Shown here: positions 14,645 through 62,631 of the stretch, in pieces
How positions within the stretch are numbered: the first letter of the stretch is position 1
Layout of the letters: every line of letters begins with the position of its first letter
From: a virus
Length of the DNA: 64,000 nucleotides
Strand: one strand, 5' to 3'
IMG/VR virus record: IMGVR_UViG_3300042922_000850
Coordinates: 1-64,000 of that record
Made by a program: the position numbers and the translations under genes
Notes under the pieces: model-generated
The model's input: the letters and a program-made list of their open reading frames with translations, nothing else
Database searches by the model: none
Told to the model about the DNA's origin: nothing

Positions 14645-14659
14645 GTATAAGTAATAAAA
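14645..14659 (+). promoter_or_regulatory. Conserved phage motif GTATAAGWRAKAAAA, copy 1
   Basis: gtataagtaataaaa, intergenic. Confidence 0.7.
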
Positions 14660-14669
14660 CAAGAAATTG

Positions 14670-14699
14670 TAATAGCGGCATAAATTTATGCCGCTATTA
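14670..14699. repeat. 30-bp perfect palindrome
   Basis: taatagcggcataaa|tttatgccgctatta. Confidence 0.85.
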
Positions 14700-14701
14700 T
14701 T

Positions 14702-15367
14702 TTGAAGAAAGGAGGTTTAAAAGCTATGAGAACGATTTATGGTTTAAAAATGTTTACCTTGGAAGATATCACTGGTAAAACAGGAGGTAGGCCATCAGTA
14801 TGTAATCTATTAAAGGAGGACCCATCTATATTAGACCGGTTTGAAGATGGTGAAAAAATGGTTGTCGACACAGGGTTACATCAAAATTTTACAGTTTACA
14901 ATATGGCAAAATGTTTAAAGTTTGTTTTTGTGTCAATTGATTTATTTGAAGAAAAGCTTATACTAGATAATTTTACTTCTAACATAAGCGATGTATTAAA
15001 GATGCTTACTACCGTAAGCCGTACGGAGAAAGTTGAGCGGATAATAAATAAGCATATTGATAGTTATGAAAAATATTCAAACAAGTATTCCGGAGAGGCC
15101 TTACTTAAAGAGCCTTGTTTTATGTTCGTCTTTGACAACGACACAAACAAATTAGTTGACGTTTATACGGCAATACCAGGGGAAGTAATCTATTGTCTAT
15201 CAAAGCCCATTGAATACGAATGTAGTGTGTGCGGAAAAATAGAGCAGACAGAGAATACTTCATTCAATAATTTTTTACCAAAAATGTATTATAAGTCATC
15301 CGAAAAAGAAATTGATTATCGGTGTGAAGACCACAAAGAACATGATTATTCTCACGTAGGAGAATAA
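14702..15367 (+). CDS. Hypothetical protein (C-terminal CxxC...CxxH)
   Basis: GAAAGGAGG RBS suggests the true start is the internal ATG (MRTIYG). Confidence 0.7.
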   Translation: MKKGGLKAMRTIYGLKMFTLEDITGKTGGRPSVCNLLKEDPSILDRFEDGEKMVVDTGLHQNFTVYNMAKCLKFVFVSIDLFEEKLILDNFTSNISDVLKMLTTVSRTEKVERIINKHIDSYEKYSNKYSGEALLKEPCFMFVFDNDTNKLVDVYTAIPGEVIYCLSKPIEYECSVCGKIEQTENTSFNNFLPKMYYKSSEKEIDYRCEDHKEHDYSHVGE

Positions 15368-15400
15368 ATCCATTTCCTATCAATTTTTAGAAAAAACCCC

Positions 15401-15429
15401 TTGTCAAGATAAAAAAAGATTGATAAAAT
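15401..15429 (+). promoter_or_regulatory. SigA-type promoter TTGTCA-17-TAAAAT with extended -10 TG
   Basis: Near-consensus, upstream of HU gene. Confidence 0.55.
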
Positions 15430-15436
15430 AAGTGTG

Positions 15437-15451
15437 GTATAAGAAATAAAA
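15437..15451 (+). promoter_or_regulatory. Conserved phage motif, copy 2
   Basis: gtataagaaataaaa. Confidence 0.7.
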
Positions 15452-15509
15452 CAGCGGGAGAAACCTTTCCGTTGATAATAAATTATTTTAATTCAAGGAG
15501 GCCAACAAT

Positions 15510-15854
15510 ATGGCGAATTTCACACACTCAGAACTTAAAGACTGGGTAGCAGACAATTATGTATTAGAGACAAAGAAAGAGAATGGGCAAGAAGTAGAAG
15601 TAAAGTTAACAAAGAAGCAGGCTGATGATTTATTGAAATTAATTTTCGGCAAAGTAACTGCAGAAGTAACAAAGGGTAATGATGTAAAAATGCTGGGCAT
15701 TGGAACAGCAAAGAGAAATAAGAGAGAAGCTAAAATGGGCAGAAATCCTATAACAAAAGAGACACTTCCGATCCCTGCACATTATGCTTTAAAATTGGAT
15801 GCTGAGAAATCAGTAAAAGATTCTTTAAAAGCTCTTCCAATCGAAGCTGAGTAA
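15510..15854 (+). CDS. hup: HU-family DNA-binding protein
   Basis: V.MLGIGT...R.A.MGRNP.TKE.L.IPA signature. Confidence 0.9.
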   Translation: MANFTHSELKDWVADNYVLETKKENGQEVEVKLTKKQADDLLKLIFGKVTAEVTKGNDVKMLGIGTAKRNKREAKMGRNPITKETLPIPAHYALKLDAEKSVKDSLKALPIEAE

Positions 15855-15927
15855 CAAATTGGTTATAACAAAGTAAACAGAGTATATGCAAAGTAAACAG
15901 AGTAAAAAAAGAAGGGGGCCAATTAAA

Positions 15928-16785
15928 ATGGCAGCAGAAAAAGAAGAAAAGAAAGATTTACCAGTAGGTAACGCAACATTTAGTTTTGACGCATTTAGTG
16001 AATTCGCAACAGAAAGTGGTGTTACCGGTCTAGAAGTATTAGACAACACCGACCTTAAACTTCCTAAGTTTAAAATTGTTCAGATGACCTCTGAAGAATT
16101 TACCAAGGATAACATTACTCCTGGTAAATTCTATAACACAGTAACAAAGGAAAGCTTTGATACATTAGAGTGCATTTTACTTGCTGTAGGCAAAAGCAGA
16201 GTTATGTGGCCGGCACAGTTTAAGCGTGGAGATAAACCGTTGTGCAGATCTTTTGATGGCAAAGAAAAAACTGAAGGCTGTGGCGATGGGGTTTGCTCAT
16301 CATGTCAGTACTCACAATGGCCAAAGGATGATAGCAAGGGTAAAGACAACAAACCGCCGTGCACAATGGGTTATGTATGGCTTGCGATGGATAGTGAGAA
16401 CCATCCATTCCGTTTGTCAGCACAAGGATCTTCTGTTTCTCCTACCAAGGATTTCTTAAACGCAATCGCGCCGAAACTCCGCAGAGGTAAAAAACAACTT
16501 GGTATCTTTATATTTAAGATGGCTCTTACCACTGAAAAGTTAAGTAATGATAAAGGAACCTATTATGTTCTGAAGTATAATGAACCAATCGGAACAATTG
16601 ATCCTGCTGATTACAAGACCGTGGAGGAAATGAGTGATAGCCTTCGTGCAATCTTCCTTCAGGCTATCGACAAAGATACTGCAACAATGGATGCAGCAGA
16701 TTATGGCGACGGAGATGCTGCATCAGATGGCGCTGCACCGGATGCCGCAGTAGACGGCAAACCAGGCAACAGCGTTTTGTTCTAA
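15928..16785 (+). CDS. Putative ssDNA-binding/annealing protein
   Basis: LKLP..KIVQ..S, four Cys, acidic tail ending in Phe; start at MAAEK after AGGGGG RBS. Confidence 0.5.
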   Translation: MAAEKEEKKDLPVGNATFSFDAFSEFATESGVTGLEVLDNTDLKLPKFKIVQMTSEEFTKDNITPGKFYNTVTKESFDTLECILLAVGKSRVMWPAQFKRGDKPLCRSFDGKEKTEGCGDGVCSSCQYSQWPKDDSKGKDNKPPCTMGYVWLAMDSENHPFRLSAQGSSVSPTKDFLNAIAPKLRRGKKQLGIFIFKMALTTEKLSNDKGTYYVLKYNEPIGTIDPADYKTVEEMSDSLRAIFLQAIDKDTATMDAADYGDGDAASDGAAPDAAVDGKPGNSVLF

Positions 16786-60916: not shown

Positions 60917-60935
60917 GCAAAGGTGGGTAAATGAT

Positions 60936-61121
60936 ATGGGTATCCAAGAACTTAAACAGTTAGAAGCAGGTAATATTGTTAGAAGCAACCAAACAAATGA
61001 GGAATACCAAATACTTATGAAGTTTCAATATTCCGTTAACTGTTATCTTGGATCCGGAAAGTCAGGGCACAAGAGAATTGGCGAGACGAACATGAATGAA
61101 TTTGACTTAGTAAAAAGATAG
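60936..61121 (+). CDS. Hypothetical protein
   Basis: ORF with RBS. Confidence 0.55.
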   Translation: MGIQELKQLEAGNIVRSNQTNEEYQILMKFQYSVNCYLGSGKSGHKRIGETNMNEFDLVKR

Positions 61122-61145
61122 CTGCGATATCGCAGCTATCTTTTT
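61112..61145. terminator. 34-bp perfect palindrome
   Basis: aaaaagatagctgcgat|atcgcagctatcttttt. Confidence 0.8.
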
Positions 61146-61146
61146 C

Positions 61147-61641
61147 GTGAAGAAAGGAAGGGATAAAATGCGAATTAATCAATATACTGTTTTGCTAGAC
61201 GAAAATAAACTACCATTTTTGGTAAAAGAAAGGGGGTTAAATTACACTGATGAGGTTAAAGGTGTAGGTTCTCTCGTTCGCTTGTGCAACACTATTTTTA
61301 ATGCTAGTAAGCAAGCAGAAGAACATGTGTACCTTGTTTGTTGTACAACGAGCGGAAAAGTATGTGGGTTGTTTGATGTCTCTCATGGCACGGTTAATAA
61401 TTGCCTTATGGGGCCAAGAGAAATCCTCCAAAGAGCCTTGTTATGCGGGGCGGCAAAGATATCTATCGCACACAATCATCCAGGGGGAAGTATAAAACCA
61501 AGCGCAGAAGATATTCGTGCTACAAGACGAATTAAAGAGGCTGCAGAAATGATAGGCCTTCAGTTAGACGACCATATCATTATCGGTGATAATGATACAT
61601 ACTATAGTTTTGCACAAGAAAATTCGTTGAAGGAGAAATGA
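61147..61641 (+). CDS. radC: RadC-family JAB domain protein
   Basis: EE, HNHPGG...PS.ED, DHIIIG. Confidence 0.9.
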   Translation: MKKGRDKMRINQYTVLLDENKLPFLVKERGLNYTDEVKGVGSLVRLCNTIFNASKQAEEHVYLVCCTTSGKVCGLFDVSHGTVNNCLMGPREILQRALLCGAAKISIAHNHPGGSIKPSAEDIRATRRIKEAAEMIGLQLDDHIIIGDNDTYYSFAQENSLKEK

Positions 61642-61642
61642 A

Positions 61643-61816
61643 ATGACGCGCTATTTTGATTTAATAGGAAAACGTGTGGTAGCAGATATTACAATTGACG
61701 ATGGAACGCCCGCTTGTACAGCGACCGCAGATAAATTCGAAAAATTGTTCCACTGCAGTATTAGAGAAGTAGATAAGGTAGAACGTGATAAATTGGTCAA
61801 GGAATACAGTGATTAG
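61643..61816 (+). CDS. 57-aa hypothetical protein (not in ORF track)
   Basis: AAGGAG RBS; MTRYFDLIGK... Confidence 0.55.
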   Translation: MTRYFDLIGKRVVADITIDDGTPACTATADKFEKLFHCSIREVDKVERDKLVKEYSD

Positions 61817-61826
61817 GAGATAAGAT

Positions 61827-61982
61827 ATGAGATATAAAATTATGCTGTTCTTAGATAAATTATTGCAAATTTCTCACCACCGTTGCGTGTGGTGTGGTAG
61901 AATATTAACGGACATCGAAATTACCTATTACGAAAACAGTTGTAACAAGTGTGAAGAAAAAATAATGAAGAAGCTGAGATAA
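61827..61982 (+). CDS. 51-aa zinc-finger peptide (not in ORF track)
   Basis: AGGAG RBS; CVWCG...CNKC. Confidence 0.55.
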   Translation: MRYKIMLFLDKLLQISHHRCVWCGRILTDIEITYYENSCNKCEEKIMKKLR

Positions 61983-61998
61983 GCGGAGGTGCTTAAAA

Positions 61999-62556
61999 AT
62001 GAATTTGTACAATGCTACACATATCGTTCTGAAAAAAGAAGATGTTGACAAATATTTAACTCTGGGAGAAGTGGAAATACTTGCTAGACTCTGTGAAAAG
62101 ATTGTTAGCCGCAGGGGAAAAGAGGACAAGCCACACAATGAATATATTGTGTGCGATACGGATGAAACCTATGCCGAAGAAATCTTGAACACAATTCAAT
62201 GGCACGAAGAAAAGAAAGAAATGCGTACATACGGAGACATTATCCAATCATTAAAAGCTGGCGAGAAACCAGCTTATGAAGAAATTAGGCTGGCAGCTCT
62301 CATGGGCTCCAATTTACTTTTCTTCGCAAATAATGATATTAAGCGTCTCGCAGGTGAGCCGTCAAAAATTTTTACAAAAGAATGGTATCTGAGTGAGAGT
62401 TACACCAGATATCACAAAGCATTAAACACAACACCTTTTAAATGGCTTGGCAATGACCACCCAGATAACCCGCAATATAGAGAAAGATTTAATCTCAGTA
62501 ATAAGATATTAGATAAGGTACTTAATGGCATGGAATCTAAGGATAGTACAAACTAA
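61999..62556 (+). CDS. Hypothetical protein
   Basis: GGAGGTG RBS. Confidence 0.7.
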   Translation: MNLYNATHIVLKKEDVDKYLTLGEVEILARLCEKIVSRRGKEDKPHNEYIVCDTDETYAEEILNTIQWHEEKKEMRTYGDIIQSLKAGEKPAYEEIRLAALMGSNLLFFANNDIKRLAGEPSKIFTKEWYLSESYTRYHKALNTTPFKWLGNDHPDNPQYRERFNLSNKILDKVLNGMESKDSTN

Positions 62557-62588
62557 CATTACCATATATTCTCAGATAAAACGGTATG

Positions 62589-62631
62589 GTATAAGAAATA
62601 AAAGGAAATTGACTTTCCTTTTATTTCTTAT
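62589..62631 (+). promoter_or_regulatory. Conserved phage motif, copy 8, in 5' arm of an 18-bp hairpin
   Basis: gtataagaaataaaaggaaa-ttgac-tttccttttatttcttat. Confidence 0.7.

Follow-up and report, generated by a model that had tools for sequence, protein, structure and literature searches.

Phages that use promoters of their own are known, among them T7, N4, phiKZ and AR9. In phiKZ and AR9 the early promoters consist of a conserved AT-rich motif of about 10 nucleotides (nt) centred near position -10, which can be found in front of early operons by sequence analysis alone, later gene classes carry no such stereotyped signal, and the polymerase is a phage-encoded enzyme of the multisubunit type that is made late and carried in the virion (PMC7598289). 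Here we describe a comparable element, the 15-nt motif GTATAAGWRAKAAAA, in the first 64 kilobases (kb; the window) of IMG/VR virus record IMGVR_UViG_3300042922_000850, a genome of 166,758 base pairs (bp) with 127-bp direct terminal repeats that is referred to as a whole as G000. The AT-rich motif near -10, its discovery from sequence alone and the lack of such a stereotyped signal in front of later gene classes recur in G000, and carriage of the polymerase in the virion may recur as well. The enzymes differ: phiKZ and AR9 have beta and beta' split into pieces, no sigma-70-family factor and two sets, i.e. a virion and a non-virion polymerase, whereas G000 encodes one single-chain, near-bacterial beta-beta' fusion and a sigma-70-family protein, and thus does not belong to the phiKZ/AR9 type; its 167 kb also place it below the 200-kb limit for jumbo phages. 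The reading we favour, and consider fairly probable, is that the motif constitutes the promoter of a phage-encoded holoenzyme, composed of the fused RNA polymerase (RNAP) and a divergent sigma factor and probably delivered by the virion, which drives the early and middle genes of the plus strand.

A sequence-only reading of the window had listed eight plus-strand copies of the motif, each upstream of a ribosome-binding site and a start codon, and had assigned them to the early promoter class of the fused phage RNAP. All eight are exact and on the plus strand, and each lies 13-68 nt before a start codon equipped with a Shine-Dalgarno (SD) sequence. Together with a degenerate ninth copy they are:

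14645-14659, plus strand: motif copy 1, followed by a 13-bp leader hairpin (14670-14699); heads the gene 14726-15367
15437-15451, plus strand: motif copy 2; heads the HU-like gene 15510-15854 and the plus-strand block up to 24106
40542-40556, plus strand: motif copy 3; heads an isolated plus-strand island (40592-41124) amid minus-strand virion genes
42881-42895, plus strand: motif copy 4; heads the isolated plus-strand gene 42922-43254, which adjoins the large terminase gene
49408-49422, plus strand: motif copy 5; heads the accessory sigma factor gene 49491-50150
50191-50205, plus strand: motif copy 6, with the SD sequence directly after it; ATG at 50219, open reading frame (ORF) of 49 amino acids (aa)
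55840-55854, plus strand: motif copy 7; heads a long plus-strand operon starting at 55903
62589-62603, plus strand: motif copy 8; heads 62646-62939 and the following genes
13560-13574, plus strand: degenerate ninth copy GTATAAGGAATATGA, 51 nt before the gene 13611-14606, the first gene of the plus-strand block at 13.6-24.1 kb

None of 100 dinucleotide-preserving shuffles of the window contained a match to the motif, the number expected by chance being 0. A genome-wide scan, as proposed with the sequence-only reading, returned 34 exact copies on the forward and none on the reverse strand of G000, the reversed pattern used as a control gave none on either strand, and a relaxed core gave 36 forward copies and 1 reverse copy. 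Degenerate copies are found at 13560, 91573, 93746, 97632 and 124304. When the 34 copies are aligned, the signal proves longer and reads TTTT(C/A)T-n-GTATAAG-W-R-A-K-AAAA-B-R-A. The statement that the copies share no -35 element appears essentially correct: all that the aligned copies have in common upstream is a T-tract (-7 to -2) and a weak TTTTA (-22 to -18), both counted from the first G, and no TTGACA-like element was found.

Gene assignments come from a simple gene call combined with family searches. The genes needed for the following are:

2302-3702, minus strand: tail sheath
7208-8248, minus strand: major head protein
25094-31999, minus strand: single-chain beta-beta' RNAP of 2301 aa, with Pfam Rpb2 domains 3, 45, 6 and 7 and Rpb1 domains 1-5
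32188-34158, minus strand: portal, immediately upstream of the RNAP gene
41161-42783, minus strand: large terminase
49491-50150, plus strand: accessory sigma-70-family factor of the sporulation type, with motif copy 5 ahead of it
56286-56528, plus strand: AbrB-type protein
56555-56842, plus strand: SpoIIID homologue (E 1e-28)
56947-57498, plus strand: RNase H, in the operon of motif copy 7
154055-154945 of G000 (outside the window), minus strand: divergent sigma-70-family factor of 296 aa among virion genes, orthologous to gp10 of Salmonella phage Arash

Every motif copy heads a plus-strand unit and virion genes are never headed by it. It precedes the units of HU, the sigma factor and the AbrB/SpoIIID operon, replication genes, a tRNA and numerous small cassettes; a helicase and genes of nucleotide metabolism are also encoded on the plus strand, as is a dense array of small ORFs at 85-98 kb. 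Family searches bear out the earlier assignment of HU (Pfam PF00216), of the sigma factor (Pfam regions 2 and 4) and of the AbrB/SpoIIID operon behind the copy at 55840; the gene 14726-15367, which had been called a single-stranded DNA-binding protein, gave no family hit.

By their position the copies behave as promoters. Four short plus-strand islands amid the minus-strand virion genes each start with one copy (40542, 42881, 49408 and 50191), and these islands could draw on no upstream plus-strand transcript. In the array at 85-98 kb most copies come after a terminator-like hairpin and before an SD sequence, and such hairpins ahead of many copies require re-initiation. One copy ends 2 nt before tRNA-Ile(AAT) at 93639-93712 of G000 (motif-tRNA unit 93623-93712), the hexamer and the tRNA being 10 nt apart, so that the signal cannot be purely translational. 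The motif is thus very probably a promoter. The placement at the tRNA further implies a primary transcript almost without a leader, and a second, variant copy is present at 93746.

When genes preceded by a gap of at least 60 nt are considered, TATAAG precedes 28 of 57 plus-strand genes (antisense 1, shuffled 4.8) and only 1 of 32 minus-strand genes. TATAAT is found upstream of 14 of these 32 minus-strand genes (antisense 5, shuffled 4.1), and several of these sites are extended by TG or accompanied by TTGACA at 17-18 bp, examples being gTGaTATAAT at 88838 and 95581 and TTGACA-18-TATAAT at 25015. G000 has two promoter-like classes, one per strand, with hexamers differing at the last base. The motif lacks the features of a host sigma-A promoter of Firmicutes, i.e. 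TATAAT with an optional TG (TGnTATAAT) and TTGACA, whereas the minus-strand virion genes have them; it is instead a stereotyped element near -10 in front of non-structural or early units and absent from virion genes. The TATAAT class could be read by the host sigma-A holoenzyme, or by the phage or host core with another sigma factor.

A tag-like peptide, [YLFE]E..[ILV].K.A (of the MDKIAxYExxIYKEA type), occurs 9 times in G000 compared to 0.55 expected, 8 of the 9 on the minus strand; it is mostly N-terminal but also internal in an 882-aa protein, and the loci lie on the minus strand at 48621-55751 in the window and at 87892-88809 and 94582-95547 of G000. The latter two are minus-strand islands within the early array and have gTGaTATAAT promoters, which shows that the virion-type class follows the tag and not the neighbourhood.

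The geometry downstream of the hexamer suggests where transcription starts. In eight of the ten genomes studied in detail, i.e. G000 and nine relatives (G001-G004, G006, G008, G009, G023 and Arash), SD sequences keep a distance of at least 6 nt from the hexamer's G, with one nearer match each in G003 and G023, and sites accumulate at a distance of exactly 6 nt, G023 contributing 10, G008 4 and G009 3. Leader hairpins in the relatives mostly begin 10-17 nt after the start of the hexamer, several of them at 11-12. The 6-nt floor, the starts of the leader stems and the tRNA 10 nt after the hexamer would fit a -10-like element, with transcription probably starting 6-7 nt after the G, in G000 inside the invariant AAAA. 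In G000, 11-16 of 36 leaders following the motif have strong hairpins, mostly in front of long operons, and about 20 of 36 are unstructured and purine-rich.

Factors of the sigma-70 type flip the bases A-11 and T-7 into pockets (PMC7598289). In the motif the A at -11 is kept, while position -7 is a G in every copy in all ten genomes (34 of 34 in G000), and the conserved block runs on through the discriminator. An invariant G where sigma-70 needs a T makes the primary host sigma factor an unlikely reader. With sigma-70 promoters and phage sigma switches, i.e. SPO1 gp28 and gp33/34 and T4 gp55 with TATAAATA, the system nevertheless shares a -10-like hexamer, the A at -11, a presumed start about 7 nt downstream, a sigma-family factor and perhaps a weak upstream element about 17-18 bp away, in G000 a TTTTA at 18 bp from the hexamer, with 0.2-0.5 bits per position, and in G008 a GAAA at 17 bp. 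It departs from them in the invariant G at -7, in conservation through the discriminator to the start and in a core enzyme that is presumably owned by the phage.

A single-protein search for related loci yielded two fragments only, and an alignment of homologues was needed to find the relatives. The alignment-based scan of IMG/VR returned 80 loci, and whole records were fetched and analysed. The RNAP of G000 is a member of a large family of fused enzymes of 2,200-2,350 aa, which are encoded on metagenome contigs of 130-180 kb and also occur in a few assemblies of Priestia megaterium. When the RNAP gene was compared with cultured phages by megablast, no match was obtained; a protein search of cultured phages led to Salmonella phage Arash (OQ632216; 53% guanine-cytosine (GC) content). 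All nine relatives studied in detail, which span 27-51% RNAP identity and 31-65% GC, encode the fused beta-beta' polymerase and have a strand-biased (T/C)ATAAG core before ribosome-binding sites, the motif thus being co-inherited with the phage polymerase across hosts. Eight of them are listed here with RNAP identity to the enzyme of the window, GC content, form of the motif and copies on the two strands:

G002: RNAP 51%, GC 31%, G[TC]ATAAG-N3-K-W-AA, 22:0
G001: RNAP 46%, GC 32%, GTATAAGAYATTAAA, 25:0
G003 (67% complete): RNAP 43%, GC 35%, GTATAAG-N3-K-W-AA, 0:8
G004: RNAP 41%, GC 46%, GTATAAGtaATAAAA, 0:27
G006: RNAP 33%, GC 37%, aAAAcTtGTTATAAGTAAAgTGA (core word TTATAAGTAAAGTGA), 13:2
G008: RNAP 28%, GC 56%, gAAA-N15-GGTATAAG, 28:5
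G009: RNAP about 28%, GC 58%, CATAAG, plus GGTCATAATA, 29:6
G023: RNAP about 27%, GC 65%, gtCATAAG, 1:29

In Arash, the forward strand has 17 and the reverse strand 55 copies of TATAAG (control 29 and 25), the top 9-mer is TGGTATAAG with a strand ratio of 18:0, and about 35 sites read tGGTATAAGtaaaGTGTAAaca followed by an SD sequence, some of them in front of tRNAs and all on the strand opposite to portal and RNAP. The exact 15-mer is absent from relatives with an RNAP identity of 33% or less; an unbiased k-mer ranking of relatives lacking it showed that the top strand-asymmetric words keep the hexamer core with other flanks. G008 has TATAAT only 4 times in 191 kb compared to 28 occurrences of GGTATAAG. 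When 20 further distant relatives were scanned for the exact word GTATAAG only, it was clearly strand-biased in G010, G012, G022 and G024. Among the matches listed in an exact-motif scan of all viral contigs, there were single chance matches in AT-rich contigs, and the sole locus with two matches lay in an already known relative. A core staying constant across very different hosts and from 31% to 65% GC points to a phage-encoded reader, and judged from these sequences the specificity for the motif is likely to be encoded by the phage.

The enzyme that we regard as the probable, though less certain, catalyst at the motif is the 2301-aa protein, the only RNAP detected in G000. As the sequence-only reading had stated, it is a fused enzyme, i.e. 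a complete beta-beta' fusion, and its catalytic NADFDGD motif (residue 1526) is intact; alpha and omega subunits were not recognised in this analysis. Its gene adjoins the portal gene in six relatives and in Arash (gp204-gp206) and lies on the strand opposite to the motif in seven of eight genomes checked. In Arash the chain is cut differently: gp206 comprises beta and the first part of beta', matching residues 94-1582 of the enzyme in the window at 27.5% identity, and gp216 contains the rest of beta'. Arash shares with G000 the portal-RNAP synteny, an orthologous sigma factor (gp10) in the structural block and an GGTATAAG-type motif on the opposite strand, and differs in the cut of the RNAP, the low identity of gp206 and its Gram-negative host.

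A bacterial-type RNAP core needs a specificity factor, and a conserved sigma factor that the sequence-only reading had missed would fill this role. With Arash gp10 as the query, an iterative search detected a single orthologue per genome in all ten. Pfam recognises region 3 only, above threshold in G008 and with E 0.015 in G000, but a profile of seven members matches solved sigma factors, i.e. SigA, RpoS, FliA and a sporulation sigma (1l0o chain C), over regions 2-4 with a best E of 1.5e-15. The gene lies on the strand opposite to the motif in eight of eight genomes checked, and neither the RNAP gene nor the conserved sigma gene is ever headed by the motif.

The accessory sigma factor encoded at 49491-50150, which the sequence-only reading had placed downstream of the phage RNAP in a cascade, is of a different kind. 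It resembles SigF/G/E/K, its NCBIfam SigF/SigG match (E 6e-35) staying below the family cut-off, and among the five closest genomes a sigma factor recognisable by Pfam regions 2 and 4 is present in G000 and G001 only, being absent from G003 and from the complete G002 and G004. A cascade to a sporulation-type sigma factor found in just two of the five closest genomes is weakly supported. We rejected this protein as a reader of the motif, because it is itself situated behind a motif copy and is missing from the complete G002 and G004; it looks like a host-directed accessory gene outside the conserved programme. Homologues of sporulation regulators, i.e. SpoIIID, an AbrB-type protein and the SigF/G/E/K-like sigma factor, lie behind motif copies, which suggests a spore-forming Firmicute as host and a manipulation of its sporulation network.

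In the model we propose, the single-chain RNAP and the conserved sigma factor would be made from the virion-gene strand together with the virion proteins, and the holoenzyme would be packed into the particle and enter the host with the DNA. There it would initiate at the motif and transcribe early and middle genes of the plus strand, switching on small host-takeover cassettes, HU, nucleotide and replication genes and the tRNA, as well as host-directed regulators (SpoIIID-like, AbrB-like and the sporulation-type sigma factor), while virion genes would use the second, host-like TATAAT/TGnTATAAT class. The adjacency of portal and RNAP and the position of the sigma gene in a virion block fit packaging. 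In purified Arash particles, no protein gave more spectra than RNAP gp206 (3516), with 1210 for gp216 and 467 for the sigma factor gp10, and the authors suggest a role in early transcription (PMC10585845). In phage YerA41, the RNAP subunits and a sigma factor are particle-associated and the sigma factor is encoded by a late gene in a structural scaffold (PMC7354516); YerA41 is tied to the family only via Yersinia phage vB_Yru_GN1, which has the same host species and was matched at 24% identity. We infer from this the delivery by the virion, as we do the proteins reading the motif from co-conservation and the start site from the geometry, and rate the chances of delivery in the particle as about even.

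Several observations weigh against this reading. The enzyme is linked to the motif by co-conservation; the earlier assignment to the fused RNAP stands as far as a phage-specific class in front of non-structural genes that co-occurs with the RNAP is concerned, while the step to the enzyme itself goes further than co-conservation does. In G002, the exception among the genomes checked, the portal-RNAP block lies on the strand of the motif. Exact GTATAAG has few or no copies in seven of the 20 distant relatives (G009, G011, G013, G014, G020, G023 and G026), of which G009 and G023 use CATAAG instead according to a de novo analysis. The putative capsid-targeting tag was sought on the RNAP and is absent there, unlike on the putative capsid cargo proteins; the N-terminus of the conserved sigma factor has a loose (I/L)(L/I)-E-K-x-A resemblance to it, from which we claim nothing. 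The Arash virion preparation contained 116 proteins, and its authors allow for carry-over of abundant enzymes (PMC10585845), and the YerA41 RNAP genes were scored as early-expressed (PMC7354516). Furthermore, three perfect stems of 17-21 bp at the copies 55840, 62589 and 71338 reach over the hexamer, which a start at about +13 does not explain:

55843-55886, plus strand: perfect 17-bp inverted repeat with a loop of 10 nt, the 5' arm covering motif positions 3-19
62591-62631, plus strand: perfect 18-bp inverted repeat with a loop of 5 nt, the 5' arm covering motif positions 2-19
71339-71385 of G000: third perfect palindrome, at the copy at 71338; as in the other two, the 5' arm extends back to motif positions 2-3

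An RNA starting at about +13 would hold only part of such a 17-21-bp stem, and an upstream plus-strand transcript is unexpected at 55840. A DNA-level effect, termination of read-through or a start further upstream at these copies are possible explanations. The 3' arm of the repeat at 62591-62631 is the source of a minus-strand hit with two mismatches at 62619.

The same phage holoenzyme might act unpackaged, host RNAP first transcribing the RNAP and sigma genes from TATAAT-type promoters and the motif defining a second wave, which is the logic known from T7 RNAP. A possible TTGCCC-17-TATATT promoter of the RNAP gene and a TATAAT upstream of the conserved sigma gene agree with this, and so do the RNAP lacking the putative tag, the early scoring of the YerA41 genes and the possible carry-over in the Arash proteome. 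However, RNAP and sigma are encoded within virion-gene blocks, the RNAP gene adjoining the portal gene in every genome examined, so that head and tail genes would be expressed ahead of replication genes, and both proteins are particle-associated in two cultured relatives; we hold such a second wave to be rather unlikely. Alternatively, the conserved sigma factor could, like SPO1 gp28 and T4 gp55, direct the core RNAP of the host to the motif, leaving another class such as the virion genes to the fused RNAP. The factor is a genuine sigma-70-family protein with regions 2-4, members of this family in general bind bacterial cores, and the second sigma factor of the window together with the SpoIIID and AbrB homologues implies that host RNAP is still used. 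Yet sigma factor and phage RNAP are inherited together in hosts that range from a probably spore-forming Firmicute to Salmonella while the motif core stays constant, and one sigma family fitting such different host cores is less economical than a co-evolving core of its own; the phage RNAP also retains the region of Rpb1 domain 1, to which the clamp helices that dock sigma would belong. We consider this use of the host core unlikely, slightly more so than the second wave.

A host sigma-A promoter of an unusual, -10-only type, conserved because TATAAT-like elements are universal, would agree with TATAAG being one base away from TATAAT, with its AT-richness and suitable SD distance and with the early genes of many phages using host RNAP. 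It is hard to reconcile with a G for T at -7 in every copy of every genome, with conservation through the discriminator, with a separate TATAAT/TGnTATAAT class on the other strand and with a core unchanged from 31% to 65% GC, including G008, which nearly lacks TATAAT but has GGTATAAG 28 times, and we regard it as very improbable. Equally improbable is that the motif is no promoter but an RNA-processing site or the boundary of recombining or mobile cassettes ahead of genes. Promoter-plus-hairpin parts are reused verbatim in the array at 85-98 kb and long palindromes overlap some copies, but isolated plus-strand islands with no upstream plus-strand unit still start with the motif, terminator-like hairpins before many copies demand re-initiation, and the hard 6-nt floor between hexamer and SD sequence as well as the placement before a tRNA agree with a start site; the motif might serve shuffling and still be a promoter. 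The promoter of a phage-encoded holoenzyme thus remains our preferred reading.

The array at 85-98 kb recalls T4-type promoter-early-stem-loop cassettes, in which, as reportedly described by Arbiol et al. in 2010, small ORFs are framed by a reused promoter and stem-loop. G000 likewise has small ORFs, a reused promoter with stem-loop and a hyperplastic early region; unlike in the T4-type cassettes, the promoter is of a different class. In full-text literature searches, GTATAAG or TATAAG together with phage returned only primers and unrelated work, and no description of the promoter came to light. The word promoter is absent from the papers on Arash and YerA41 (PMC10585845, PMC7354516), and Weinheimer & Aylward 2020 (PMC7481178) mention neither promoters nor sigma factors nor virions, and a fusion for crAssphage only.

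Some further features were observed in G000. The 331-aa protein encoded at 13611-14606, with a degenerate motif copy and a TATAAT ahead, has no family hit and is conserved in five of six relatives; its gene is divergently paired with a protease-like gene (10475-12943) in G000 and G001-G004. It may be a candidate for an immediate-early specificity factor, although in G001 and probably in G004 it lies behind the motif. A perfect 40-bp palindrome, TTAATTATATCTATGGCCACGTGGCCATAGATATAATTAA, with the centre CACGTG lies between two plus-strand genes at 16796-16835 of the window and may act as terminator, operator or recombination site. At 84500-84600 of G000, upstream of a minus-strand gene for 1169 aa (80952-84461), GGACATATAAT/ATTATATGTCC is repeated several times in direct and inverted orientation, which looks like an operator array over a TATAAT promoter. 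One virion-strand gene (139609-141666, minus strand) has three near-identical internal repeats of about 60 nt or longer (140192, 140978 and 141224), which suggests a repeated domain, perhaps of a fibre protein.

As to its meaning, we tentatively propose, at somewhat less than even confidence, that a whole, almost unstudied lineage of tailed phages with hosts from Firmicutes to Salmonella carries a minimal holoenzyme, i.e. a single-chain core and its own sigma factor, in the particle, the sigma factor reading a G at -7 and thereby setting up a programme independent of the host. If true, the lineage would differ from T7, N4, phiKZ and AR9 by combining a sigma-70-family factor with a phage-supplied single-chain core of the bacterial type. 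A structural prediction is a sigma pocket accepting G at -7; for the region-2 pocket this specificity would be new. Since the cultured relative Arash has the same signal, the idea is directly testable, and the two proteins could give a compact orthogonal transcription system. A simple promoter (GGT[A/C]TAAG plus flanks) would mark early and middle genes throughout the lineage and thus may provide a rule for annotating temporal classes in hundreds of metagenomic phage genomes.

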